A DNA stretch of 63,758 nucleotides, counting the filler, from Stramenopiles sp. TOSAG23-3 (taxonomy: Eukaryota), in NCBI GenBank assembly GCA_900128585.1. It is 9 parts of 9 records of this genome, joined end to end, with 100 filler letters (N's around TTAATTAATTAA, not from the genome) between each part and the next. Parts side by side here need not be neighbours in the genome. Positions count along the whole stretch, not along the records: positions 43,324 to 51,861 come from LT643007.1; 8 more parts are not named here. One strand, given 5' to 3'. This document shows, piece after piece, positions 7,478 to 62,226 of this stretch. Both the position numbers and the translations under genes were made by a program. The notes under the pieces are model-generated. The model had not been told where the DNA came from. It worked only from the letters and a program-made list of their open reading frames with translations, and searched no databases. Position 1 is the first letter of the stretch. The number at the start of each line of letters is the position of its first letter.

Positions 7478-7756
7478 ATCCAAAGGGGTGCAATGATGAC
7501 GTACTTTCTCTGGGAGAGAGAAATAGGGTTCACTGTGTGGAGTGTCGAATACCCATATATGTTAGATTTTTAAATGTACAAAAATTAAGATTTTATGATA
7601 TTTTTACGATTCGAGAGAAATTGCAAAATTTTTATAACAGCCAATTTTATTGTTTTTAGTTAAGTGCCTAAAACCTGTAAAAATAAAAATCCTGATTGAG
7701 TACTCCGAACCCCGCTTAAAGTTTTCCTCGCCGCCCGCCATCCCCGCCACGCGCTC

Positions 7757-8574: not shown

Positions 8575-8674
8575 NNNNNNNNNNNNNNNNNNNNNNNNNN
8601 NNNNNNNNNNNNNNNNNNTTAATTAATTAANNNNNNNNNNNNNNNNNNNNNNNNNNNNNNNNNNNNNNNNNNNN
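8575..8674. other. Artificial contig spacer N44-TTAATTAATTAA-N44
   Basis: 100-bp linker with stops in all six frames. Confidence 0.98.
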
Positions 8675-13427: not shown

Positions 13428-13643
13428 GAAAAAAGCATGCACACGCACGAAGTAAACTTCATGATCTTATCATATTTGGGTTTTATAAAAAACAAAACGT
13501 CGAATTGAAACATTTACTTATGATATCATATGATAAAAAACCAAACACTGGGGCGGTTATTTAAATAGTTATAATTAGATTAAGCCAAGTTAGGTTTTTT
13601 TATCACAGCCTCCATTGTTTTTGTTTTAAATTCATACTTGGTT

Positions 13644-17248: not shown

Positions 17249-17348
17249 NNNNNNNNNNNNNNNNNNNNNNNNNNNNNNNNNNNNNNNNNNNNTTAATTAA
17301 TTAANNNNNNNNNNNNNNNNNNNNNNNNNNNNNNNNNNNNNNNNNNNN
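17249..17348. other. Artificial contig spacer
   Basis: N44-TTAATTAATTAA-N44. Confidence 0.98.
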
Positions 17349-25919: not shown

Positions 25920-26019
25920 NNNNNNNNNNNNNNNNNNNNNNNNNNNNNNNNNNNNNNNNNNNNTTAATTAATTAANNNNNNNNNNNNNNNNNNNNNNNNN
26001 NNNNNNNNNNNNNNNNNNN
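25920..26019. other. Artificial contig spacer
   Basis: N44-TTAATTAATTAA-N44. Confidence 0.98.
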
Positions 26020-30154: not shown

Positions 30155-30246
30155 AAAAAAGGAGTATAATTCGATCTACGTATATAAAAATACGTACGAA
30201 GCGAACGGGCGAACGGGGACAACTTATAATTCTTACTTGTACTAAA

Positions 30247-30450
30247 TTAAAAACAAGAAAATTGGCTGTTATTTAAGTAATTAAAATTAATGTACTGCGA
30301 ACTGAAATTTTTGATTTAGACATTCTAAATTAATAAACAAGAAAATTGGCTGTTATTTAAGTAATTAAATTTAGCTTCCTCATACCCTAATCCTAACTTG
30401 TTTCTGTACTTTTGTTTCGTTGTTGGTTGTCAATCACCGAGGGGATGATA
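30247..30450 (+). repeat. Two tandem copies of the dispersed repeat terminus (AAACAAGAAAATTGGCTGTTATTTAAGTAATTAAA)
   Basis: Copies start at about 30247 and 30335. The second continues TTAGCTTCCTCATACCCTAATCCTAAC...GTTGTCAATCACCGAGG, matching 54415-54540 on the minus strand. Confidence 0.9.
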
Positions 30451-34579: not shown

Positions 34580-34679
34580 NNNNNNNNNNNNNNNNNNNNN
34601 NNNNNNNNNNNNNNNNNNNNNNNTTAATTAATTAANNNNNNNNNNNNNNNNNNNNNNNNNNNNNNNNNNNNNNNNNNNN
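34580..34679. other. Artificial contig spacer
   Basis: N44-TTAATTAATTAA-N44. Confidence 0.98.
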
Positions 34680-34855: not shown

Positions 34856-35175
34856 TCCTCATGTACCGCGAAAATGAATCTGCTCCTTTTGTCCATTAAA
34901 GGTTTACGTTCCTTCATGTACTGCGAACTTATCTCTGCTCTCGTGGTTTTACTAATCAATATTCCCTTGTCACTTAGTCTTTATAATCATTCTCAGATGT
35001 ACTCCATGCATAATACGAATCGGTAGGTGGATTGGCAATGCTTTCAAATGACCCATAGTCAACTTCCTCATCCGGTGTCTCACTCATAGATGAATCAGTC
35101 CTTGTGTGGTTTTCCGAGCAGCGGAGCAGCGGCGTAATTGTTTTATAGGTGCTCGTTGTCTGTCTTGTAAATCTC
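34856..35175 (+). mobile_element. Dispersed repeat family, long internal copy
   Basis: CCTCATGTACCGCGAAAATGAATCTG...CCCTTGTCACTTAGTC...ACTCCATGCAT...GTCTTGTAAATC, shared with copies at about 47270-47515, 53440-53640 and 61165-61385. Confidence 0.85.
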
Positions 35176-37176: not shown

Positions 37177-37345
37177 CACAGAATTGGCTATCAACTGCAG
37201 TAAATCTACTTCCAAACCATTACCCTGTATGCCACATCGAATGCTTCTCTCTTCTAGCCGTTGTTGACCATGCTTATAATGACTTTCTAGTTCCCTATTA
37301 AATGTATTGGTTTTCAAATGTGTGGTAACATTATTACGAAGATAC

Positions 37346-37379
37346 GGTAAACCGGGTATAAACAAAAAACAAAAGAAAA
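37346..37379 (+). repeat. Left arm of a 34-bp inverted repeat (partner 40218-40251)
   Basis: GGTAAACCGGGTATAAACAAAAAACAAAAGAAAA versus the reverse complement of 40218-40251, one mismatch. Followed by NNN. Confidence 0.9.
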
Positions 37380-37491
37380 NNNAATAACAGCATTACACCA
37401 TGATGATTGGAATCAAAGGCCTATTTTTTTATTTTTTGATGATAGTTCTTGGCTCTAACTTGGGTTGTTGCGAGTTGCGAAGCGAAAAAAT

Positions 37492-37556
37492 GACCAGCCG
37501 CTTTTTTTAATGCTATTTCCATGTTTTATTTTTTTGATGATAGTCGTCGTTTGCTA
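37492..37556 (+). repeat. 65-bp direct repeat, copy 1
   Basis: GACCAGCCGCTTTTTTTAATGCTATTTCCATG...GATAGTCGTCGTTTGCTA, identical to 39987-40051. Confidence 0.95.
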
Positions 37557-38589: not shown

Positions 38590-39819
38590 TCAAATATCAC
38601 TTCTGACAAACACATCGTCGTCCTTGGGTCCCCAAACATTCGTTCCGTCCTCAAGTTCGATACGGTACGGGTTCCCATCGTCCCAGACCTTTATGATACG
38701 GCCGGGCGTCCACCCAGCCCCAGTTCGCGCACGTACTTTGTCGCCCACTTTGAAGCGCAATGGCTTGTCGTCGACTCGGCACGCATTTACACCAGCGATG
38801 AGAGCCTCGCGGTCCAGGTTGCGCCCGATAAAGACGAAACGACACTCGCGTGTTTCGCTCCCCCACGACAATTCCGAGAACCCGCCCTGGAAGAGCATTC
38901 CGACCCCCTGAAAGATGAACTTTAAGTCCATGCCCTTGCAGGCCAGTACACCTTTGTACCGAAATAGATCCGCGCCCTTTGTGCGCAAGAGTGTGTTTAT
39001 CCAGTCTTCCAGAGCATTTGTCAGAAGCTCGCCTTCGAACTTGACGGAGCAGCTTGTCACACTCAGGTCGTGCTGGTGTTCCTCGTCAAAGTTGGTAAGG
39101 AAGTCAGGCTCGAAGTCCAGCACACGTCGGACGTCGAAAGCGCCAACTCCAAGCAGCCTGTTCCAGTCAACCTTGCTCTGTGTCGAGCGAATGATAGACG
39201 CGGTCGGGTTGAACTCGCGGATTCGACCTTCAATCTTCTTTAACTCGGTCTCCTCGGGTACCAGATCTACCTTGTTAAGGAGAACAATGTCGGCAAACGC
39301 GAGCTGCTCCTGGGCCTCGTTTTCGACCCCTTCCGGTTTCTCGTCGTCGAGGCGGATCTCCAAATGCTTCGCATCCACAACGGTAATGATGGCGTCCAGA
39401 GCGTACATCTTCTGTATCTCCGGGTCGATCAGAAAGGTTTGCGCCACGGGCGCTGGGTCTGCAAGTCCAGTGGTTTCAATGATGATACCATCGAACTTGG
39501 AAACCTTCGCGTACAACTTCTTGAGGGTTACCACGAGGTCGCCGCGCACCGTGCAGCATATGCACCCATTCATAACCTCGATGATTTCTTCGTCAACACG
39601 TTCCTTAATTTTATCGGTGCCAAGAATCTTCTCGTCGATTCCAACTTCACCAAATTCATTTTCGATGATTGCAAAGCGCAAGCCATGGTCCTCGGATAGC
39701 AGGTGGTTGAGCAAGGTAGTCTTTCCAGCGCCAAGGAAGCCCGTCAGCACTGTTACCGGGACACGCCCTCCGAGGGAGTTCTTATACTTCGCTTTTGTAT
39801 CTGCCGCGTTAGCTGCCAT
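38590..39819 (-). CDS. COG0523/CobW-family (ZNG1-like) G3E GTPase metal chaperone with C-terminal SH3-like extension
   Basis: PVTVLTGFLGAGKTTLLN, IIENEFGE, GCICCT, IETTGLADP, NKVD, CobW_C (LFRYKG...FVFIGRNLD), then LRFKVGDKV...W..G......W..GNPYRIEL. Confidence 0.95.
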   Translation of the reverse strand: MAANAADTKAKYKNSLGGRVPVTVLTGFLGAGKTTLLNHLLSEDHGLRFAIIENEFGEVGIDEKILGTDKIKERVDEEIIEVMNGCICCTVRGDLVVTLKKLYAKVSKFDGIIIETTGLADPAPVAQTFLIDPEIQKMYALDAIITVVDAKHLEIRLDDEKPEGVENEAQEQLAFADIVLLNKVDLVPEETELKKIEGRIREFNPTASIIRSTQSKVDWNRLLGVGAFDVRRVLDFEPDFLTNFDEEHQHDLSVTSCSVKFEGELLTNALEDWINTLLRTKGADLFRYKGVLACKGMDLKFIFQGVGMLFQGGFSELSWGSETRECRFVFIGRNLDREALIAGVNACRVDDKPLRFKVGDKVRARTGAGWTPGRIIKVWDDGNPYRIELEDGTNVWGPKDDDVFVRSDI

Positions 39820-39986
39820 TGTCTGTTTTACAAATTTGTTGTTCGTACTGTGATTTAAGAGTTTCAGTTTGAATTTAGGTTTACAATTTTACACTTATCC
39901 TGGTAATTATTTTTAATCGTTGAATGAATACACATGTACAAAAGTAAAGAACACAACGAGGAGGTACCGGTACGGGTACGGGTACG

Positions 39987-40051
39987 GACCAGCCGCTTTT
40001 TTTAATGCTATTTCCATGTTTTATTTTTTTGATGATAGTCGTCGTTTGCTA
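39987..40051 (+). repeat. 65-bp direct repeat, copy 2
   Basis: Identical to 37492-37556. Confidence 0.95.
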
Positions 40052-40217: not shown

Positions 40218-40251
40218 TTTTCTTTTGTTATTTGTTTATACCCGGTTTACC
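40218..40251 (-). repeat. Right arm of the 34-bp inverted repeat
   Basis: Reverse complement is GGTAAACCGGGTATAAACAAATAACAAAAGAAAA. Confidence 0.9.
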
Positions 40252-40476
40252 ATATATGCGCGGGTAAAAATAAGTAAGTATAATTTTAATTATTTTTTTT
40301 ATACTCCATCCAGATAGGATTAGGGTTGGAACTGAAATAGTAATTGATTTAAAATGAGAGTCTTAAAGCATACTATATAATTTGTTTTTTTTAATACAAA
40401 ATGCTTTTTATGACACACTCTCCGGTCACTCATGAAGGTTTTAAGGACGGGGTTGCTCATGAAAGGAAGGGGTTAC

Positions 40477-43223: not shown

Positions 43224-43323
43224 NNNNNNNNNNNNNNNNNNNNNNNNNNNNNNNNNNNNNNNNNNNNTTAATTAATTAANNNNNNNNNNNNNNNNNNNNN
43301 NNNNNNNNNNNNNNNNNNNNNNN
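43224..43323. other. Artificial contig spacer
   Basis: N44-TTAATTAATTAA-N44. Confidence 0.98.
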
Positions 43324-43328
43324 AAAAG

Positions 43329-46300
43329 ATGGCACTATTAATAGGACTGCCAGGTTTTGGAAAAACTGACCTTATAAAAAACCTGCTGCTCCAACAGACA
43401 CAATTTCCGGGAGTTACAATTAAAGTGGTTAATCGTATTTCGTCGAAGATTTTGTGGGATTCAAGTAAGTTCCAACTTCATCGGCATTTCAGATATGTAA
43501 AGCCATTTATTGTAATTAATTTTCAGAACAATATGAACATGGAATCCATGTCTCATGGCCTCCTTTCACTTTTCCACTTGGTTGTAGAGCGATTCAATCT
43601 AACCGAAGAAACGGTGAACGCAGTTGATTTCGTCTACAATTCGTCAAAAAAATTCAACAGAAAAGAGTTATTGACAGAATTAAGAAGAAAGTGGAGGAAG
43701 GTTGAAAAGCAGTACATGAGTCGGGCAGGGCTACTTTCTGCGTTGGTGACTAAGTTTCATAATTCACTAGTTTCTTATAACTATTGCAAAGACAAAAAAT
43801 TCGGACTACTTTTGACGGGCAAGTTTATGGAAGTGCAGAAACTGAAGGAGATCGAAGACATTATTAGTAAGCATTTAGTACAAACAACCAAAGATATTAT
43901 AGAAAAACTTCGATCGCTTCCTGATAGCATTTTAGACATCTGTGAATGCTTGGACAACTTCAAGCATTTTGAAAGTATGGTATTTTCAGTATCGGGGAAC
44001 TTCGAAATTGGGGACATCAAAGGGCAGATTCAAGAACATTTTTTTGCGAGGGTAAACAAAAGTGCATCAAGTTTGCTTAAAGGGGGAAGTAGGAAGGAAA
44101 TATTGTTTTTGCGCAGTGACATAAATGTGCTGAGAGCTTTAGAAATGAAATTATACGAGCTTAAGATTATCGACGGCCAATCCACCGTTGAAGAAGTACT
44201 TGATAAAACATTACAAATCTACGACGACAAAACCAAAATAATGGCAAATCTTTGTGATTCAAAATTTATGCTCAAAATTTTCAACTTAAGAAAGTTTAAC
44301 GTGCGTCTGAAGGAATTATATCTCGCATCGAAGGAGAAACTGATTGAATGGTTAATTAACAATCTTCTCAAAATGCATCCTAAGACACATTACCATAACA
44401 TATTCCGTTCACTACAACTTCATGAAGATTCTACGTTCGAAGCGTTAGTAGCGACGTTGGTGTCCGCTGCTCGAAAACAGTATAATAAATGCTCTAATTT
44501 TTTGGATAATTTTCCGCTTCCAAGTGTTGAAAGTGTTGATATGCTCTTGTTACAACTCGAATATGCCAGGTGCAACCTTGGTAAATATTTTCCGAAAGAT
44601 CTGTGGCCAAAAACAATTATTCAAAATAAAATTGTTGATCCTTTGAGAAAAAGCATTTGCAAAACATCTGGCGTTGAAATTCACTTTCGTTCTCTGCAAG
44701 AACAATCAGTATATCTTGATTTTTTAGCGTGCAGTGAATACATTAGGAAGATGCAGCCGTTCCTAGTTCCAACATGGACCTCAAAAGTTGGTCATCATGT
44801 CACAGCATATTTGATAAATCCGTTGTTTAGTTGGGTGACAAAAAAACGTCTTGGTTTTGCGAAACTCAATAAATGTAGAGCGTGTTTCGAAAACAATATT
44901 TCTTCGTTTCAAAAGCGTTGCGAAAACATCATTAAATTTGTAAGATCAGTAAAGAAAATAAAGAAAACAACTCAACGCGAATATTTTATTCGACTTATTG
45001 GTAACGCTACCAATAAATGGATGAAACGTTGTGACAAACTTTCTGGTTCCATACTATTTCAATGCGACATCTATTCTCTCTTTCATGGGGCCTTTAAATC
45101 TAGTCAATATTATAATTTTTTGAAATGGTGCTTCACAACAGAAAATCTAGATACTCTTGAAAAATTTGAAAATCAGAATGCACCACAACTCCTTTGTGAA
45201 ACATATAGAAAATATTATTTACTTCAAAGGTGTGAAAAGTGTGTTGAAAATTGTCTGGCTGGAATTTTGAAAGAACTGAAAGATTGTGTTGAATTACAAA
45301 ATGCATTACTCAGTTTTCAATCGGGCCCTGTGAGACTAGACTTTGAAAAATCCATTATCCATCGCGTCAACGATTTATTGCAGCCCGTAGAGCAACAGAC
45401 TATGCATACTGCTATTTTGAAAATAGGTGAACTTCTTACTCTCTTCTGCGTATTTAAACTTTTCTGTCCACATACAAAAAATGAGTATCTTCCTAAAATC
45501 CGGGAAGGGGTTTCCATAAAATTTAAGTTTTTGAAGACTAAATACAAAGATGTTTTGACTCGAATGGACAGTATCGTTCCGACAAGAGAAGTATATACAA
45601 GTAGTACAACATATGGAGAAATGTGGTCGGCTGTTAACGAGGAAATCAACTTAGAAAAATATAGTTTAGTCAATACAAAGTTCATACGCGCAAGTGAGTT
45701 GTTTGGACTATTCATAACATCAACATTGGTTGAACAAGAAAATTGTATGTATTATGAGATTGGAGACTTTTTTGTGCACGCAAAAGCGTATAGAAAAATT
45801 AAAAAAATGGCAATTGTTTTTGCAGGAAGTTTCACGGAGGCTCTTTCCTCATACGATCTATACCGAATAGGAGTTCTGCGAAAAATTGCTTACATTATAA
45901 CAGAAAGATTAAATAGTGTATGCGCAAAACGATTTTTTGATCAATTGGATGATTGTAATTTTCATTCATATAAAATGATCCCCTGTTATTTGATCAGGAG
46001 AGCACTTCTCGACGTAGATAAATTGAAAGACGTATGGTTTAAGCTCAAAAAAATCAAGTCACTTGGCGTAAAGGAACTTGATTTGTTGGTGTATGGTTCC
46101 TATGAGTTGCAAGGTGGAATCGAAAGCCCGACAAGAATACTGATGCAGTATTTTTCTAAGTGTATAGAGGACATAAATAAGACAAAGTCCCAAATAATCT
46201 TTGAAATTATGCAAAACTGTTCTCTTCCCTCAGGATATGACGGTTGCATCGCTGATATTTCGAGATGCTTTAAGTATATTCATATTTATTCTGATCTCGA

Positions 46301-46874
46301 AGTTGAGAAAGTGAAAAGTTATGGCCATTATATTTCAGAGTTCGTGAGCACTGTCTCCAAATTTGTTCGAATGCAAATTGAAAGCAGGAACTTTTCTTGC
46401 TCGTTTTTGATCATTTCATTTCTTCGCTCTATTTTTGATATTTTGTGTCTTTTAAGTCCCGATGTTTGTGGTAAATACCATGATCAATTCAAAAATAAAT
46501 GTGATGAATTTATGGCCATACTGAATACAAAACTAGAGGAAAATCTGCCAAACACGTATATGAATGTTCAAACATGTAAAGACTTATTCGTTCACATCAA
46601 TTTTGCTGAGAAAGCAGTAAACATCCTTCCGTGTTTCCAAAAACGTTGTTTGGAGTTTAAAAAAGCATGGGATACTGCGTTGATGAATGTACTAAATCAG
46701 GCGGGAACAGTCGGGTTCAAATGCCCAGTGCTGAATGAGTTTTGTGCTGGAAAGTGGGGCAAGAACTACCCCCTTTTGGTATCTCGATTCAAAATAGAAG
46801 TTCTTAATAGTGGTGTGCCAACATCGGAGAGTCCACCCAAAAGACTCCGTCGACACACGAGTGCGCCAAGCTAA
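43329..46874 (+). CDS. Large AT-rich hypothetical protein with Walker-A-like motif and helical body (possibly 5'-truncated)
   Basis: 1181 stop-free codons in AT-rich DNA; LLIGLPGFGKT at the start; NLS-like PPKRLRRH at the end. Confidence 0.75.
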   Translation: MALLIGLPGFGKTDLIKNLLLQQTQFPGVTIKVVNRISSKILWDSSKFQLHRHFRYVKPFIVINFQNNMNMESMSHGLLSLFHLVVERFNLTEETVNAVDFVYNSSKKFNRKELLTELRRKWRKVEKQYMSRAGLLSALVTKFHNSLVSYNYCKDKKFGLLLTGKFMEVQKLKEIEDIISKHLVQTTKDIIEKLRSLPDSILDICECLDNFKHFESMVFSVSGNFEIGDIKGQIQEHFFARVNKSASSLLKGGSRKEILFLRSDINVLRALEMKLYELKIIDGQSTVEEVLDKTLQIYDDKTKIMANLCDSKFMLKIFNLRKFNVRLKELYLASKEKLIEWLINNLLKMHPKTHYHNIFRSLQLHEDSTFEALVATLVSAARKQYNKCSNFLDNFPLPSVESVDMLLLQLEYARCNLGKYFPKDLWPKTIIQNKIVDPLRKSICKTSGVEIHFRSLQEQSVYLDFLACSEYIRKMQPFLVPTWTSKVGHHVTAYLINPLFSWVTKKRLGFAKLNKCRACFENNISSFQKRCENIIKFVRSVKKIKKTTQREYFIRLIGNATNKWMKRCDKLSGSILFQCDIYSLFHGAFKSSQYYNFLKWCFTTENLDTLEKFENQNAPQLLCETYRKYYLLQRCEKCVENCLAGILKELKDCVELQNALLSFQSGPVRLDFEKSIIHRVNDLLQPVEQQTMHTAILKIGELLTLFCVFKLFCPHTKNEYLPKIREGVSIKFKFLKTKYKDVLTRMDSIVPTREVYTSSTTYGEMWSAVNEEINLEKYSLVNTKFIRASELFGLFITSTLVEQENCMYYEIGDFFVHAKAYRKIKKMAIVFAGSFTEALSSYDLYRIGVLRKIAYIITERLNSVCAKRFFDQLDDCNFHSYKMIPCYLIRRALLDVDKLKDVWFKLKKIKSLGVKELDLLVYGSYELQGGIESPTRILMQYFSKCIEDINKTKSQIIFEIMQNCSLPSGYDGCIADISRCFKYIHIYSDLEVEKVKSYGHYISEFVSTVSKFVRMQIESRNFSCSFLIISFLRSIFDILCLLSPDVCGKYHDQFKNKCDEFMAILNTKLEENLPNTYMNVQTCKDLFVHINFAEKAVNILPCFQKRCLEFKKAWDTALMNVLNQAGTVGFKCPVLNEFCAGKWGKNYPLLVSRFKIEVLNSGVPTSESPPKRLRRHTSAPS

Positions 46875-47045
46875 TGTTGTACCTATTTCCATCTGCCGCA
46901 TTTGTCTATAATCGAAGGATATATGTCTTCTCAAAGAGAGAGCCGCAAACGCAAAAAGAAACATTCTCTACATTTGCAAAGCGAGTTTGGCATGTAAAGA
47001 CTATTATATCTAGAGAAGCTCATCACTATTTTCAAAAAAAACAAA

Positions 47046-47138
47046 ATGCCTAATTCTTAGTGTGCTAAAAAGTTTTAATAAAATAAGAGAATGTCTTCTC
47101 TTAGTATGCCTAAAATTTTATAATAAAATAAGAGAATG
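47046..47138 (+). repeat. Imperfect two-unit tandem repeat
   Basis: TCTTAGT.TGC.TAAAA...TAATAAAATAAGAGAATG occurs twice. Confidence 0.75.
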
Positions 47139-47210
47139 ATCAATGAGAGCCGCGAGCTAATACGCAAACTAATGATGCTAGATATTTAAGGATTAATATG
47201 TAGCATATAA

Positions 47211-47515
47211 TTAAAAACAAAACAATTGCTGTTATTAAGGTATTTAAAATTTGTGCCCAGTAAGTTTTACTTCCTATTTGATGTACTGCGATTTATTTCT
47301 GCTCTTGTAGTTTTCTTAATCAATTTACTCATTTAGTCTTCTTTATTTCCCTCTTGTATACTCCATGCATGATCAGAAGTGATATTACGATGTCAAATAT
47401 CCCATGGTCAACTTCTTTATCCGGTATCTCGCTCATAGATGAGTCAGAACTTGTGTGATTTATCAAGCAGCGGCGTAAAAGTTTTTAAGGCGCTCGTTTT
47501 CTGTCTTGTAAATCG
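47211..47515 (+). mobile_element. Dispersed repeat family, diverged copy at the end of a longer degenerate element
   Basis: Degenerate terminus TTAAAAACAAAACAATTGCTGTTATTAAGG, then alignable to 34910-35175 (ATGTACTGCGA, ACTCCATGCATGATC, GTCAACTTC..ATCCGGT.TCTC.CTCATAGATGA.TCAG, GCAGCGGCGTAA, CTGTCTTGTAAATC). Confidence 0.85.
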
Positions 47516-48183
47516 TTCAAGGAATGGTCGTTAATGGGTTGAATTCAGGTCGGTATGCGGAACCGTCATTAGGGGGTTTTGCTGCGGTGGTAAAGGTTCG
47601 GTGTGCAGTGCTGTGGTTGTGATGTTGAGCATTAGATTAATTGCTGGCATGCGACGGCGTTGTTGTGGGCGTTATTATCTCATCCTAGTGGAGGGACCCA
47701 GATCCGCTTCCACCTCCCTTGTCACTTCGTCCAAGGGTGTAATTACTGGGGTCAGGGGGGGGAGCTTCTTGCCTGCTGTAGATGCCCAGATCCACTTCCT
47801 CCAGCATTGCCGATTCGTCCGAGGATGGCACTAGTAGAGTCAGGGCGTCCGATGGTTACGAAGGAGCTTGAACTTCACTGTCGTCCTCTGGCGTGAACCT
47901 CTGGGGTCGCGTTATCTGATGATTGCGTTGAGGGTTGTACTACTGTGTCGTGGGCCGAAGTTGACAGTAGGGGACAAGAATCTACTGTGGTAGTGGGGGG
48001 GGTTTGGGTGGGTAAATACTATACAGCTACAACACGCCTGCTAACAAAATATTGCTTATCATAGTACCTTGTACGTGAATTCACAGTATTTCTTCTTTAA
48101 CTGCTTGTCCCACTTGTACTTTTTATTGACAGAATCTTCCTGTCCTTCATACGTAGCAGCTCCCGGAAGACTGTGACGGCTTG

Positions 48184-48393
48184 TTAAGCGTTCTCGACTC
48201 CGTTTCTCACCCGCTTGCTGTTGTATTTGGAAAAGGTCTGTACAATATCGGATGAAAGAAGTTTAATCGTTGGGATGGCGGCTAGTGCTATGTCACATGT
48301 GATGATTGTGTCTCTGTCTGATGCATTCACTAGGGTGAACGACTTTGCTATTCTGTCGATGAGCAGGTCCTTTTGTTTTGATAACTTTACCAT
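48184..48393 (-). pseudogene. Short or decayed ORF with AT-rich virus-like leader
   Basis: ATG preceded by TATTTAAGTATAACAATATAAATAAA; decayed P/T/S-rich coding-like sequence continues to about 47520. Confidence 0.35.
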
Positions 48394-48698
48394 TTTATTT
48401 ATATATTGTTATACTTAAATACATATTATTAATGAGATTTATGAGATTTATGCCCCGCGGAAAAACGGAAAAAAAGAACAGGATTTTACTTTTGTTCTAC
48501 AGAGTCTGACCCACTCCTACCAACTTCCGGCACTTGGCACTTTGACTTGTGCGTATGTGGAGAAAACCTAAATAATGGATCTTTTTTCCGTTTTTCCGTA
48601 GATCTTTTTATTAAATCTGGATTTGTGTATATCCTCCCGGGCACAACCCCAGTGAGAAAGGAAAACAACATTATTTGCCGATCAACATAGAGTTCTGT

Positions 48699-49157
48699 TC
48701 AGTCAAGCCTGTCGGTAACAAACGGCACCTCTGGGACAGTTTGCACGTGATCCTCGTCCACTTTCAACCTCCAACCCTTAAGCAACTTCTTTTTTGTTGA
48801 GGAATTTGTGTACACGTCGTTCTCATAGGACATATTGGTTTCGAAAAACGCTATCATAGCCGTGGCTTTCATCTCCTTGCTGTTTTGTTTTCGTTTCGGC
48901 ATGTTTGCAAACTCTCGTGATTGACGTAGGTGTTTTACAATGGCAGCTAGGCTCCAATCGGTGTCGCTGCATCTGCCCCTAGAATCCTTATAAATATGCT
49001 TCGTTTTTCAAACAATGTGGTGAAGATATCATGGATGTCATACGAATCTTGTAAATAATCCAAGCTTCGTTCTTTCACACTGCCCGGTACATATCGTTCA
49101 GTATTGTACTTATGAATCGTTCTTGAGTATTAATAGGTACTGGATCAAAATATTAGC
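48699..49157 (-). pseudogene. Frameshifted C-terminal fragment resembling a D5-like (SF3) primase-helicase of NCLDV/Polinton-like elements
   Basis: Three frames join to give NILIQYLLILKND/KYNTERYVPGSVKERSLDYLQDSYDIHDIFTTLFEKR/..SDTDWSLAAIVKHLRQSREFANMPKRKQ...FFETN...LLKGWRLK. Family recognised from recalled motifs only. Confidence 0.55.
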
Positions 49158-49593
49158 GCCCCGACCTCCCCGATGTACGACCCCCTGACCTTCTCCCGCC
49201 TGAGCTGGCTCGGCACCCCATCACTCTCTGTGCTTCGCTCGGGCCATTTGATTGGAAACCAGTCAGGTGAATTTTCTTTTTTCTGCTTCAATTTCCTTTT
49301 ATCTTCTCGCTTTTGTGAAAGCCATCAAAAAATAATAATTGTCCTTTAATCTCCTTGACCCACCATTGTCCCCAGTTATACAAAATATAATTCATATTTT
49401 TTCTTGTAATATAACTTTAGATAAATATCTAAATATCAGCATATATTTTGTTTTAAGAATATATTATATTAAATTAAATAACGGGTTATGTTTTTTGTGC
49501 GAACCTCTTATTAAAGTTGACCCGGTCTACCGCGGTAGACTATACAGCACCACAGATTAACAAATCAACCCAGGTTTCTTTGCTGCTAGCTTG

Positions 49594-50709
49594 TTACTCC
49601 CATTCTTCATTGCAACTATCTGGAGCTGGCTGCATATACTTTCTCCGTGCCAGTATAGCTGCTTCCAGAGAGCTTAGGCTTTTTTTGCCGTCAGAATTCG
49701 ATGCATTTTGTTTGTTATTAAGCCTAGCTTCTATATCTTTTGCAGATATTTTTTTCCTTTTATGGTTACGAATCGATTCCATCAGCGGTGAATCTGTACC
49801 TTCTACATTTCTGTCCTCTGATCTGGAGTTTATCTTTACAGGTCGAAGTAATGTTTTTTCTGCCTTTGTTTTCTTGGTGGATTTGATATCATTTAGAAAA
49901 GGCAACGCCGGTCTTGAGTACTGTTCACGCGCAGATTTACGGGAGTAAAGCAGGGGTTTTGGAGATTGGCATTTGCCGACTTTTTTTTGCATGGGTAATG
50001 AAGGTTCAGGCGAACGAGTCAAACGACGGTCGGTTTCAATGTTCTTCGACACACTTTGCACTTCTTTGTCAATGCCAGCGTTGGCTACTATAGACACTTC
50101 CTTCGGGTCCAATGCATTGGCCATTGTTGTTTTCTGAGTGCGATTTCTTGCTTTAGAAAGGTTTTCCATATAATCTAACACATTTTGTGCCGTTAATACA
50201 TTGACCTCAATTCTTCCGAAAATGTCACCGGAAGCTGTGTTGGCATTGCTTGTGACAGCTTGTACAAAACCTTTCCCGTACATCGTGGCAAAGACCTCCT
50301 TAATTTCAGTTAATTCTGGTATCCTATCAGGAGTTTTTCCTGCCGAGCATATTATTGTGGAAGCAAAATCTTTCATCGTCAAAGGGCAGGGCTCATCTTC
50401 TTTAAAAAATTTCACACACCTTAGCACTCGGGTAAAGATAGATAGTAGTTTCTCGTAAACTTCGATCAGGTTCTCTTCTAGAATAACGACTTCTGTCTTT
50501 GTTCTGGCCTTTGTCTCATCACCAGAGTGCAACAAGTTGATAATGTCATCTTTTTGCAACTTCAACTTCCTTTTATAAGTTTCAATAAGCCTATGGATCC
50601 GGACACATCCTGTGCCAAGGCTTGTTTTAAGGCGGGTTGAGCAGTCAACAATATTTTCGCCCTTGATCCACTCAAAAAGAGCACTTAATGGTTGCAACAC
50701 ACCTTCCAT
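49594..50709 (-). CDS. IST1-domain (ESCRT-III-like) protein with WH2/C/A-like C-terminus
   Basis: IST1 pattern LKTSL....RI.......K.....KDDIINLL..G....ARTKTEVVILEENLIEVYE.L...CP...KDFASTII......IPELTEIKEVF...YGKGF; tail LEAAILARRKYMQPAPDSCNEEWE. Confidence 0.8.
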   Translation of the reverse strand: MEGVLQPLSALFEWIKGENIVDCSTRLKTSLGTGCVRIHRLIETYKRKLKLQKDDIINLLHSGDETKARTKTEVVILEENLIEVYEKLLSIFTRVLRCVKFFKEDEPCPLTMKDFASTIICSAGKTPDRIPELTEIKEVFATMYGKGFVQAVTSNANTASGDIFGRIEVNVLTAQNVLDYMENLSKARNRTQKTTMANALDPKEVSIVANAGIDKEVQSVSKNIETDRRLTRSPEPSLPMQKKVGKCQSPKPLLYSRKSAREQYSRPALPFLNDIKSTKKTKAEKTLLRPVKINSRSEDRNVEGTDSPLMESIRNHKRKKISAKDIEARLNNKQNASNSDGKKSLSSLEAAILARRKYMQPAPDSCNEEWE

Positions 50710-51577
50710 TCGTCAAAATCAAACACCCCAATTATTTACTAAGTGCTTGAAAGAAATACGTTTTTATCTATAAAAGCCTTCGTGCACAGAATGAACAGAA
50801 AGAACGTCTGTAATAGGGAATGTGCACACGGGTTGAGCCTGCATTTTGATGTTTACCTTGAGTACTTCTTTACGAAACTCTTACTTCGCGAAAGAAGCAT
50901 TTTTTTGGCGGAGGCTAGTTTTTCATTGGTAGGTGGTGGTGGATAATAATATAATAATAATACAGCCACACCCGTTCGGGCGAGACCCCGAGATAAGGTT
51001 TTGGTGTGATTAAATACTTTTACTTACTATACAAGCTACAAGTATTGTTAAGAATAGGGTTATTATTTATGTTAACTGTCTTCACGTCCACGAATTAATT
51101 ATTAAGGTATCAAGAGCAAACAGCTATATGCTATCATAGCTGAAGAAGACGAGAAGCAGCAGATACCGATCGATGATTGAAGAAACCGCACTGCAGTACG
51201 AAAATATACTGCAATGAGAAAAAGAATTATTTAAAACGATTGTTTTGATCTTAGAAGTTTTGGGAGTACGAGTACTCGAACGGATATTGAAAGAGCCATA
51301 GAAACGGAACGAAAAGTGCGATACTTGAAGTTTTGATTTCTAGAAACCTAACCTAAGTTTATACTATCTATACTACATAGAGAAGCGGAAGAAAAAACAG
51401 AAGGTAAGACCCCCCCCCTATAGACTATTAATTCAATCACTGACAACCAGCGTCAACACGTTCAATCTGTATACGTCACACAGAGCGACGATAGGGTATC
51501 GCCCAACCAATCTGCCCCTCAAGTGGGACAGATCGCTTGGAAGAAATCAAAGAGGGGGTCTTTTACGCTTTAAAGTA

Positions 51578-51861: not shown

Positions 51862-51961
51862 NNNNNNNNNNNNNNNNNNNNNNNNNNNNNNNNNNNNNNN
51901 NNNNNTTAATTAATTAANNNNNNNNNNNNNNNNNNNNNNNNNNNNNNNNNNNNNNNNNNNN
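51862..51961. other. Artificial contig spacer
   Basis: N44-TTAATTAATTAA-N44. Confidence 0.98.
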
Positions 51962-52908: not shown

Positions 52909-53700
52909 ACTAAAAACAAAAAATAGTGGCTGTTATTTAACGTAAATACTTCGTAGTTAAAATTTATCTTCTTCGAGTGTACCGTGAATGTGAATCTGCT
53001 CCTCCTTTTGTCCATTAAAGGCTATTATATAATCGAATTTAGATTTTTTAATATGTTTAGTCGTCTAATTAATATTATTCACTAGACGACTACAGGATTA
53101 CAAGATCACCTATAAAAGTTTCATTGGAATAACACTCGACAAACAACGGGGAAAAGAAAGAGAAAAAAACGTCTTCTTTATTATTAGTAGTCCTATTATT
53201 AGATAAATCTAGATTTCAGTTCACAGTACATTAATTTTAATTAGTCTACTTAAATAACAGCCAATTTTCTTGTTTTTGATTAGTTAGTTTGTCTTTCTGG
53301 GTAAGAGATGGAAGGTGCGCCTTTCTGCGCATCAAGATCTAGAGGTAAATGCTGAGCAGATTCATTTTTTTGCGGTAATATATATAAGCTAAATATGAGG
53401 AAGCTAAATTTTAATACATTACACTTCTTTAATTTTGAAATTTAGCTTCCTCATATACCGCGAAAATGAATCTACTCAGCATTTGTCCATTAGTGGCAAT
53501 TAGAGGACTACATTCCTTCATGTACTGCGAACTGATCTCAACTGTGGTGATTTTAGTAATCAATATACCCTTGTCACTTAGTCTTGACTATCATGTTCAG
53601 ATGCACTCCATGCTCCATGCGTGATCCGAATCGGTGAGTGAAAACGCGTTAACGCCATAAAACCACTTTAATTAACAGCCAATTTTTCGTTTTTATTAAT
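52909..53700. mobile_element. Cluster of nested or inverted copies of the dispersed repeat family
   Basis: + copy 52909-53021; inverted terminus 53248-53283; - fragment 53347-53411; + copy 53438-53640; inverted terminus about 53668-53700. Confidence 0.85.
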
Positions 53701-54349: not shown

Positions 54350-54542
54350 TCAGACATGGGAATTATAGTCAAGACTAAAAGTGACAAGGGGTATATTGTT
54401 CAATATTGGAATATATCTCCTCGTTGATTGACAACTAACGAAACAAAATTACAAAACCAAAGAGTTAGGATTAGGGGAGAAAGCTAAATTTTAAATTACT
54501 TAAAAATATATAAAATAACAGCCAATTTTCTTGTTTTTAAAT
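54350..54542 (-). mobile_element. Dispersed repeat family, variant copy with CCCTAATCCTAAC segment
   Basis: Minus strand: TTAAAAACAAGAAAATTGGCTGTTATTT...AATTTAGCTTTCTCCCCTAATCCTAAC...CAATATACCCCTTGTCACT. Confidence 0.85.
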
Positions 54543-58617: not shown

Positions 58618-58655
58618 TAATAAAAACAAGAAAATTGGCTGTTATTTAAGTAACT
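58618..58655 (+). repeat. Solo terminus of the dispersed repeat family
   Basis: TAAAAACAAGAAAATTGGCTGTTATTTAAGTAA between two convergent genes. Confidence 0.9.
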
Positions 58656-60494: not shown

Positions 60495-60594
60495 NNNNNN
60501 NNNNNNNNNNNNNNNNNNNNNNNNNNNNNNNNNNNNNNTTAATTAATTAANNNNNNNNNNNNNNNNNNNNNNNNNNNNNNNNNNNNNNNNNNNN
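60495..60594. other. Artificial contig spacer
   Basis: N44-TTAATTAATTAA-N44. Confidence 0.98.
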
Positions 60595-60596
60595 GA

Positions 60597-61034
60597 TTGC
60601 GAGAAGAAGAAGAAAAAAGGCAAACAGAAGCAAGAGAAGCGAAAGAAAAGCAAGCCGAACTAGAAAAACAACTACAGGAAAAAGAAGAAAAAAGGCAAAC
60701 AGAAGCAAGAGAAGCGAAAGAAAAGCAAGCAGAACTAGAAAAACAACTGCTGGAAGGGATGGCAGAGGCGAAGGCTAAGGAGGACGAACTGGTGCAAAAA
60801 CGTCTGGAGTTAGAAAACGATTTGCAGAGAGCACAAAGAAAAGCACATTTATCTGAGTTCACCCTATCTGAGTTAAAAAAACAAAACGACATTGCAAACA
60901 GGTTGGTCAAAACCGGTGGGAAAATAGTACGTAGTGGTGGTGGTAGTAGTAGTATGTCTACCCGCACTAGTGGACGGAGGCAAAACTCAGCAAATATGCA
61001 AAGCGGTGCATGGGAAGGCCACATTCATTATTGA
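60597..61034 (+). CDS. C-terminal fragment of a coiled-coil protein with 25-aa tandem repeats
   Basis: EEKRQTEAREAKEKQAELEKQL occurs twice (75-bp DNA unit); frame open from the contig start. Confidence 0.75.
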   Translation: MREEEEKRQTEAREAKEKQAELEKQLQEKEEKRQTEAREAKEKQAELEKQLLEGMAEAKAKEDELVQKRLELENDLQRAQRKAHLSEFTLSELKKQNDIANRLVKTGGKIVRSGGGSSSMSTRTSGRRQNSANMQSGAWEGHIHY

Positions 61035-61069: not shown

Positions 61070-61417
61070 TAAAATAATTGGCTGTCATTTGTTTTTAAGT
61101 TTTTTTTACGTATATAGACTCTAAAAAGCAATATTAAGAAAACAAATTTTATATAAAGTATAAGTAATTAAAATTTATCTTACTCATGTTGTACCGCGAA
61201 AATGAATCTGTTCCTTTTGTTCATTAAATGTTTACGCTCCTTCATGTGCTGCAAACTTAACTCTTGTGGTACTGTGGTACTACGAAGTAAAAAGTAATAA
61301 ATAATACCCTTGTCACTTAGCCTTGGATGTACTCCATGCATGATCCGAATCGGTAACGTAGGTGGATTTGCGTCGATGTCAAATGCTTTTAAATAACAGC
61401 CAATATTTTGTTTTTAA
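61070..61417 (+). mobile_element. Dispersed repeat copy with inverted termini (MITE-like)
   Basis: Left AAAATAATTGGCTGTCATTT; core GTACCGCGAAAATGAATCTG...CCCTTGTCACTTAG...ACTCCATGCATGATCCGAATCGGT; right TTAAATAACAGCCAATATTTTGTTTTTAA. Confidence 0.85.
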
Positions 61418-61510
61418 ATAACTCAGCAGAAGAACTTTTATGTAATTTTTGTTTAAAATTCAAAATAAGAATCATTTTATGATGTGCGGTTTCTATATCA
61501 CAGCACCATT

Positions 61511-62126: not shown

Positions 62127-62226
62127 NNNNNNNNNNNNNNNNNNNNNNNNNNNNNNNNNNNNNNNNNNNNTTAATTAATTAANNNNNNNNNNNNNNNNNN
62201 NNNNNNNNNNNNNNNNNNNNNNNNNN
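62127..62226. other. Artificial contig spacer
   Basis: N44-TTAATTAATTAA-N44. Confidence 0.98.

Follow-up and report, generated by a model that had tools for sequence, protein, structure and literature searches.

Why does a contig of the eukaryote Stramenopiles sp. TOSAG23-3 (assembly GCA_900128585.1) carry decayed, coding-like DNA whose minus strand reads as the end of a viral helicase? The locus lies in the contig at 43324-51861 (LT643007.1) of the window, by which we mean the whole 63,758-base stretch of DNA that was analyzed. The initial annotation of 47211-49157 proposed that a peptide joining 49157-48699 across two frameshifts was the C-terminus of a D5-like helicase, that the region was the remnant of an autonomous endogenous viral or Polinton-like element, and that short dispersed repeats were derived from the end of this element. 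We conclude that the locus is very probably a dead fragment of about 1.6 kb from a genome of the Polinton-like virus or virophage type, which retains the 3′ end of a replication gene and the next gene or genes and can neither replicate nor move.

The helicase relic

Stop-to-stop open reading frames (ORFs) on the minus strand placed the peptide in three pieces: piece A in 49110-49220 (...ANILIQYLLILKNDS*), piece B in 48947-49129 (...YVPGSVKERSLDYLQDSYDIHDIFTTLFEKRS...) and piece C in 48699-49007 (...DWSLAAIVKHLRQSREFANMPKRKQ...GWRLKVDEDH...*). Aligned with P0012, a relative of 934 amino acids (aa), the pieces have the following extents.

49119..49157, minus strand: piece A of the helicase relic, NILIQYLLILKN, corresponding to about residues 786-798 of P0012
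48998..49129, minus strand: piece B of the helicase relic, …YVPGSVKERSLDYLQDSYDIHDIFTTLFE…, corresponding to about residues 796-835 of P0012, in a frame that differs from that of A and C
48699..49007, minus strand: piece C of the helicase relic, corresponding to about residues 841-924 of P0012 plus a 17-aa tail, with its stop codon at 48699-48701

Because pieces A and C are in one frame and piece B is in another, two frameshifts are needed to join them, and these fall at about 49119-49111 and 49006-48996. Beyond the two frameshifts the relic contains no internal stop codon, and piece C has no start codon ahead of its residue 36. When 25 family proteins were searched by tblastn against the whole window, the sole region matched was 48702-49154, with E values from 1.7e-5 to 4.9e-49. 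The matches were colinear, with piece B corresponding to about residues 797-835 of P0012 followed by piece C at about 845-924, and piece B was 47-71% identical to 17 long relatives. Twenty-seven family positions in this stretch are invariant or nearly so. The relic covers 26 of them, keeping the family residue at 23 and showing conservative changes at the other three. The peptide joined across two frameshifts in the initial annotation is thus real, and the similarity of its three pieces to the family is far beyond chance.

What survives is the last ~149 codons (about 16%) of a replication protein, equal to about residues 786-934 of the 934-aa relative. Homology starts abruptly at about 49157, and the first ~785 codons of the gene are missing. 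The same 25 tblastn queries found no family match 5′ of 49154 or on the other contigs of the window, and neither these queries nor a Pfam scan of the spacer ORFs found the D5_N domain or the Walker A/B NTPase core at the locus itself. The locus is a C-terminal relic of a member of a D5-like helicase family, not a working member. Judging from the AlphaFold model of P0012, the C-terminal domain would consist of helices at residues 859-896 followed by three strands at 904-920, and this block has a predicted local distance difference test score (pLDDT) of about 76-88 over 860-920. Scanned separately, the pieces gave nothing at or near any cut-off in Pfam, PHROGs or NCBIfam, because they are too short and the C-terminal domain has no Pfam model; a phmmer search of piece C against the PDB returned noise only (E~0.9).

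One further protein bears on the history of the break. P0001, a 101-aa ORF on an independent contig of 573 nucleotides (nt), is 78% identical to piece C; its start nearly coincides with that of piece C, and it has the same unusual tail (…VPEVPFVTD…). P0001 may be this same broken relic as carried by a related genome, in which case the second frameshift would be real and the insertion old.

Relatives and the kind of virus

A phmmer search of piece C against 1.84 billion representative proteins gave 37 matches at E<=1e-3, 12 of them at E<=1e-10, with a best value of 5.9e-43. All but three (34 of 37) were single-stretch matches, which in long proteins lay at the extreme C-terminus, for example at residues 843-924 of 934. 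The full-length relatives are proteins of 887-934 aa from metagenomes. The three exceptions, P0002, P0003 and P0010, which ranked second, third and tenth with E values down to 4e-29, were rejected because their scores were the sum of 14-17 weak repeat stretches: P0002 and P0010 are long tandem-repeat proteins, and P0003 shows the same 17-stretch pattern. Summed weak repeat matches are a trap in hit lists of this kind.

Twenty of the piece C matches were scanned with Pfam, 15 of which were single-stretch proteins of at least 361 aa. D5_N was above the Pfam cut-off in 14 of these 15, and several also had a sub-threshold DUF5906 match. P0012 matched vaccinia D5, through its residues 571-791, and monkeypox E5, both at 2e-7. 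When 12 full-length relatives were combined into a profile, it matched African swine fever virus (ASFV) C962R at 8.1e-22 and monkeypox virus (MPXV) E5 and vaccinia D5 at about 4e-21. This profile match stops at position 807 of 902, short of the C-terminal domain, and hence the C-terminal domain of the relic is specific to its family and cannot be aligned to D5 itself. The AlphaFold model of P0012 (pLDDT 83.4) found ASFV PrimPol and D5/E5 in a Foldseek search of the PDB, with E values down to 7e-19. The identification of a D5-like helicase C-terminus in the initial annotation therefore holds, and these results support assigning the peptide to the C-terminal end of a D5-like, superfamily 3 (SF3) primase-helicase from a small virus-like element.

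Intact relatives consist of an N-terminal domain of ~350 aa, D5_N, an SF3 helicase and a helix-rich C-terminal domain. They show no match to an N-terminal archaeo-eukaryotic primase, and residues 1-370 of the relatives had no Pfam match and no PDB sequence match. Conserved D-x-D...AQ and YE[YF]DG motifs are present in the relatives, and these may be polymerase motifs. In a structural search of BFVD, the P0012 model matched two unnamed entries at 3.5e-50 and 2.4e-45 and the Zamilon virophage 'DNA replication protein' at 1.5e-30. These top three alignments span 970-989 columns, which is the whole length, at low template modelling (TM) scores of 0.37-0.43. Lower matches included proteins of Yellowstone Lake virophage 5 and Qinghai Lake virophage, whereas D5 proteins of nucleocytoplasmic large DNA viruses (NCLDV) aligned over the helicase part alone, about 470-800 columns.

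This layout resembles that of TVpol-S3H proteins, in which an N-terminal polymerase/primase is fused to a C-terminal superfamily 3 helicase (S3H). According to passages of PMC3671162 and PMC12220804, this fusion is characteristic of virophages related to Sputnik and of many Polinton-like viruses. The relatives are similar in size to the TVpol-S3H proteins (Sputnik V13 / Zamilon 'DNA replication protein', OLV25 and Yellowstone Lake virophage, YSLV), at 887-934 aa compared with 778-915 aa for the top three matches, have their domains in the same order (N-terminal domain, D5_N, SF3 helicase, C-terminal domain) and align with them over the whole length of the model. In structural alignment they are 12-17% identical to the named virophage proteins and 20-26% identical to the two unnamed top matches, and the window retains only the last ~16% of such a protein. 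With poxvirus D5, monkeypox E5 and ASFV C962R (structures 8apl, 8xj8, 8iqi and others) the relatives share a homologous D5_N and SF3 core; however, those proteins carry an archaeo-eukaryotic primase at the N-terminus, and the relic has no residues that can be aligned directly with D5 itself. Primases of the P4 type from phages and plasmids also have the D5_N/helicase core in common with the family, and 228 phage records matched P0012 at E<=1e-3. However, they were 22-25% identical among the matches listed, none of the 228 covered 80% of the query, and they lack the N- and C-terminal domains of the family.

The genomic context of the relatives is viral. All of the relatives stem from environmental assemblies. 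The clusters of the closest full-length relatives occur on contigs of at most 20,945 nt (up to 16,566 nt for the P0012 cluster and up to 20,945 nt for the P0023 cluster), and most contigs with more distant relatives are no longer than 25 kb. Eight loci were recovered when prokaryotic genome bins were scanned for relatives, and one of these combined a full-length relative with flanks of 1 kb or more on both sides. At this locus (L001; CAIUWH010000068.1, 7,608 nt, binned in a Bacteroidetes metagenome-assembled genome), an 891-aa relative lies amid small genes and adjoins a packaging ATPase of the Pox_A32 type, which scored 48 bits for a cut-off of 22.8. DUF5754 and DUF5824 are also found there, along with a 259-aa protein rich in Cys and one of 166 aa that carries a DNPPY motif and is presumably methyltransferase-like. 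This gene content is very likely that of a small eukaryotic DNA virus, not of a bacterium, and the contig a mis-binned fragment. A second full-length relative, of 884 aa, was found with less than 350 nt of flank per side (L002; CAISUR010000554.1). On the evidence of the packaging ATPase of L001 and the small contigs, relatives of the relic thus occur in small virus genomes that have a morphogenetic module.

The spacer, the window and the dispersed repeat

On the minus strand, the helicase stop codon is followed by a 305-nt spacer carrying a hairpin, and then by a second gene. The features between and beside the viral genes are as follows.

48458..48598, no strand assigned: imperfect inverted repeat (hairpin) with 36-nt arms, 75% complementary, -46.4 kcal/mol, z -3.4
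48059..48393, minus strand: damaged copy of a 111-aa gene, 3′ of the helicase gene
47515..48058, minus strand: possible third gene, 52% GC, with short open pieces in three frames
49158..49250, no strand assigned: unique 67% GC stretch of 93 nt, directly upstream of the truncation point

The small ORF with an AT-rich leader noted in the initial annotation is present at 48184-48408 and is the front of the 111-aa gene, whose ATG is at 48393. This copy has a premature stop codon at 48184-48186 and a frameshift at about 48121-48124; the normal stop codon of the family is at 48059-48061. Its identity to P0139, which lies on an environmental contig of 6,909 nt, is 92% over residues 1-91 and 95% over residues 91-111. 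The cluster of the 111-aa protein contains 15 near-identical environmental members, 13 of them full length, and public assemblies hold many microvariants. Both recognizable genes of the locus are thus broken, the helicase tail by two frameshifts and the small gene by one stop codon and one frameshift. A Pfam search with the 111-aa protein gave only a sub-threshold CYP38_PsbQ-like match, and its AlphaFold model (pLDDT 55.4) was too poor for a fold search. Language-model leads for this protein (0.90, 160-164 shared features), which pointed to bacterial clusters, partly DUF3987, and to a rotifer cluster, were weak and were not used.

The hairpin at 48458-48598 could represent either an intergenic structure of the virus or the insertion of a very small foldback. 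The segment at 47515-48058, which contains a tandem duplication spaced 88 nt apart (47684-47757 / 47772-47845, 70%), is possibly a third, decayed gene rich in Ser, Thr, Pro and acidic residues, although this is unproven; its reading at 47752-48018, with the internal stop taken as X, had no relative among proteins of 48-156 aa. At the other edge, 49158-49250 may be the rest of the inserted fragment or junction filler, and an AT-rich stretch extends from 49250 to the stop codon of the adjacent Ist1 gene at 49594. A Pfam scan of 30 ORF pieces across 46692-51339 gave no match above cut-off to any family and detected no capsid, packaging ATPase, protease, integrase (rve or tyrosine recombinase) or pPolB family; Pfam detects such capsids poorly, but the spacer, in which the largest ORF between the two host genes is <=102 aa, has no room for them. 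The earlier idea of an autonomous viral or Polinton-like remnant is therefore retained as to its origin in a small virus and abandoned as to autonomy.

The spacer separates two convergent host genes, namely a long ORF ending at 46874 on the plus strand and the Ist1 gene (80.7 bits) ending at 49594, and the contig runs without a gap from the one through the relic into the other.

43326-46874, plus strand: uninterrupted 1182-aa ORF that begins at the contig edge, with a P-loop-like GLPGFGKT and a GC content of 0.36, unusually low for the window

This ORF had no Pfam family above cut-off, no PDB match below E 0.1 and no usable Atlas match. Neither GC content nor GC content at third codon positions (GC3) distinguishes the relic from host genes. 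The long ORFs of the window are uninterrupted and their products are eukaryotic, including ankyrin and EF-hand proteins, kinesin, SAC3/GANP, TFIIS, Ist1, ODAD1 and CFAP298, with cilium and nuclear-pore-associated proteins among them, and the source is therefore an intron-poor, flagellated eukaryote known from a fragmentary draft assembly. The window itself is nine contigs, seven of 8,533-8,574 nt in descending length and then two of 1,532 nt, chained by eight six-frame-stop linkers.

8575-8674, 17249-17348, 25920-26019, 34580-34679, 43224-43323, 51862-51961, 60495-60594 and 62127-62226: linkers, each N44-TTAATTAATTAA-N44

Contigs adjacent in the window are not adjacent in the genome. Since the window is a chain of separate contigs, there is no physical linkage between features of one contig and those of another. 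Nothing matched when the window was scanned for Rfam families and tRNAs, and a scan for sigma-70 promoters and terminators was disregarded as not relevant for a eukaryote. Elsewhere in the window, an additional NNN lies at 37380-37382, and a CobW-family gene (38590-39888) is bracketed by a perfect 65-nt direct repeat (37492-37556 / 39987-40051) and likewise by a 43-nt inverted repeat (91%; 37337-37379 / 40218-40260); these repeats may mark a small duplication or mobile cassette. Two tandem 75-nt units that are 95% identical occupy 60603-60752, in a Glu/Lys/Gln-rich ORF at the start of a 1.5-kb contig.

The dispersed repeat is defined by a conserved end, TAAAAACAAGAAAATTGGCTGTTATTTAAG, and its motif can be written TAAAAACAAG...TTATTTAAG. 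Nine copies lie within 3 mismatches of the core, compared with 0.32 expected, and some copies have a further 150-280 nt in common.

7630-7659, 30246-30278, 30331-30362, 52911-52942, 53248-53280, 53666-53695, 54511-54540, 58621-58651 and 61388-61418: the nine strong motif copies
13544-13566, 47211-47236, 49431-49454 and 61076-61090: the four weaker motif copies
47205..47514, plus strand: local repeat copy, with a terminal motif at 47205-47251 and a body at 47262-47514, beginning 337 nt after the stop codon at 46874
49422..49464, minus strand: inverted degenerate motif copy of 33 nt, 82% complementary, 140 nt after the Ist1 stop codon at 49594

A repeat end near 47211 had been proposed earlier and does exist, but it is weak, with 86% identity to 30245-30288 over 44 nt and a score of 10.2 bits (E 0.059) in a search with a hidden Markov model (HMM) of the family. 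The body at 47262-47514 aligns with 34899-35173 over 278 nt (72%, E 9e-36). Every motif copy, weak ones included (13 of 13), lies downstream of and in sense with the stop codon of a gene. Six of the nine strong copies begin 82-107 nt after a stop codon; random placement in the same spacers gave a mean of 0.6 and reached six in none of 20,000 trials, with the distance window having been picked after seeing the data. Inverted pairs are few, namely 52911+/53280- and, weakly, 61076+/61418-, so that one or two of the nine strong copies have a partner within 500 nt. In being short, AT-rich and dispersed, with a conserved end of ~30-45 nt and an occasional inverted pair (52911+/53280-), the repeats resemble miniature inverted-repeat transposable elements (MITEs). 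They differ from MITEs and from viral termini in that the copies are mostly one-ended and stand at a fixed distance after stop codons; in addition, of the features expected of MITEs, inverted pairs a few hundred nt apart were few and target-site duplications were not evident. Among the papers listed in literature searches, none described miniature elements derived from the ends of Polinton-like viruses, which does not show that there are none.

Elsewhere in the window, no repeat locus, long copies included, shows a link to helicase sequence or the 111-aa gene. The proposal that the dispersed repeats came from the end of the viral element thus finds no support within the window, where the motif is associated with host gene 3′ ends. 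Most simply, the pattern suggests that the repeat is a 3′-end feature of host genes, either a signal (for termination, polyadenylation or as part of the untranslated region) or an element that targets gene ends. Since the copies that flank the relic stand 337 and 140 nt past host stop codons, no viral origin is needed for them, and such copies would be expected wherever convergent genes of this genome meet. The copy at 49422-49464 could be either the 3′ element of the Ist1 gene or, less likely, a partner inverted repeat of 47205-47246.

Origin of the fragment

The explanation that we favor is that 47515-49157, perhaps extending to 49250, would be a fragment of a small double-stranded DNA virus that became fixed in a spacer between convergent host genes. 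In minus-strand order it would retain the helicase tail, the hairpin spacer, the 111-aa gene and possibly a third, decayed low-complexity gene. A whole integrated element probably entered and was then deleted down, rather than a fragment having entered as such, and the short repeats on either side would be 3′-end elements of the two host genes and not element termini. Without capsid, packaging and integration genes, and without the first ~785 codons of the helicase, the fragment cannot replicate, move or form a particle. Endogenous Polinton-like viruses and virophages in protists offer a precedent. Passages of PMC10120064 and PMC12220804 describe such insertions as viral genes flanked by host DNA and likewise carrying apparent stops and frameshifts, with a primase-helicase as a typical marker gene. 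Insertions described so far, however, are usually 15-30 kb long with capsid genes, an integrase and often terminal inverted repeats (TIRs), whereas the present locus has shrunk to ~1.6 kb, retains only parts of two or three genes and lacks both integrase and capsid.

Several observations weigh against this explanation or some part of it. For the N-terminal domain of the relatives, the TVpol assignment rests on structural alignments of low TM score and on the literature, and is accordingly tentative. Neither a Pfam family nor a homologue was found for 47515-48058, and 49158-49250 had no repeat match and no Pfam match in the ORFs that cross it, so that the extent of the viral DNA is uncertain at both edges. 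Because the source is a draft assembly with contigs of ~8.5 kb, the lesions, and conceivably the truncation, could be partly artefactual. Finally, 47205-47246 and 49422-49464 form an inward-facing inverted match of 43 nt with a score of 24, compared with a maximum of 19 in 1000 shuffles, and this bracketing match leaves it open that 47205-49464 is a single TIR-bounded element.

The last of these points led to the hypothesis that the 2.26-kb unit at 47205-49464 is an internally deleted, TIR-bounded Polinton-like remnant and that the repeat family behind stop codons consists of miniature derivatives descended from the termini of the virus. The score of 24 equals that of true family members, both bracketing copies lack one G of the TGGCTG core of the family, the left copy runs into a body of 250 nt that is also present at another locus, and Polinton-like viruses are described as carrying TIRs in passages of PMC12220804 and PMC10120064. 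If this were true, the miniature elements seeded by a small virus would target the 3′ ends of genes or by now function as such ends. We downgraded the hypothesis on three grounds: the right copy scores just 1.7 bits (E 28) against the family HMM, inverted partners are rare among the strong copies, and the motif copies are positioned behind stop codons, in all 13 cases in the sense of the gene and for six of the nine strong copies at a spacing that random placement never matched. The other repeat loci, which are unlinked to either viral gene, also argue against it, as do the distances of the two flanking copies from host stop codons, for which no virus is required, and the AT-rich flanks of 47205-49464, in which no clear target-site duplication was found. 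We therefore regard TIR-bounded ancestry of this unit and of the repeat family as unlikely. The same low probability applies to an assembly artefact, in which the viral piece would not truly be integrated, or would be a complete element in collapsed form, with frameshifts and a stop that arose as consensus errors among near-identical copies. The assembly is fragmentary, two of the three frameshifts are at or beside runs of A, the 111-aa gene has many microvariants in public assemblies, and passages of PMC10120064 report that, in protist assemblies from short reads, the stops and frameshifts of endogenous viral genes often stem from a false consensus. However, the contig is gapless from one host gene via the relic to Ist1, a collapse would require a repeat at each of the two junctions, whereas 49157 showed none, and P0001, on its independent contig, begins near the start of piece C, although this last point is only suggestive.

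An origin from the D5 primase-helicase gene of a giant virus (Nucleocytoviricota), instead of a small virus, appears very improbable. In favor of it, the family has a helicase core with clear homology to NCLDV D5 and C962R, D5 proteins of Bodo saltans virus and a klosneuvirus ranked fourth and fifth in the structural search, and DUF5754 and DUF5824, present on L001, are families that also occur in giant viruses. Nevertheless, the closest relatives align over their whole length with virophage replication proteins and not with NCLDV D5, they lack matches to the N-terminal archaeo-eukaryotic primase, no contig of the nearest clusters exceeds ~21 kb, and at the sequence level the C-terminal domain of the relic is unmatched in any D5 or C962R chain. 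Even less probable is domestication, in which the C-terminal domain or the 111-aa gene would still yield a host protein. The 23 of 26 conserved positions that are kept and the 92% identity of the small gene to intact copies would fit such a role, but recent insertion explains this conservation equally well, both reading frames are interrupted, and piece C cannot start before its residue 36.

The locus is thus a viral fossil of an ordinary kind in single-celled eukaryotes, a relic fragment without plausible function. Passages of PMC10120064 and PMC12220804 describe endogenous Polinton-like viruses and virophages as very common in protist genomes. As a clean, datable marker, the relic would place a small DNA virus lineage of the TVpol-S3H type once in the germ line of this flagellate, a lineage that is otherwise represented here by environmental assemblies alone. 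Since the neighboring gene is 92-95% identical to intact environmental copies, the relic could assign a host to an uncultured virus clade, and tying such a clade to a host would be its main use. The more unusual by-product is the dispersed repeat, which behaves as a positioned 3′-end element of host genes.

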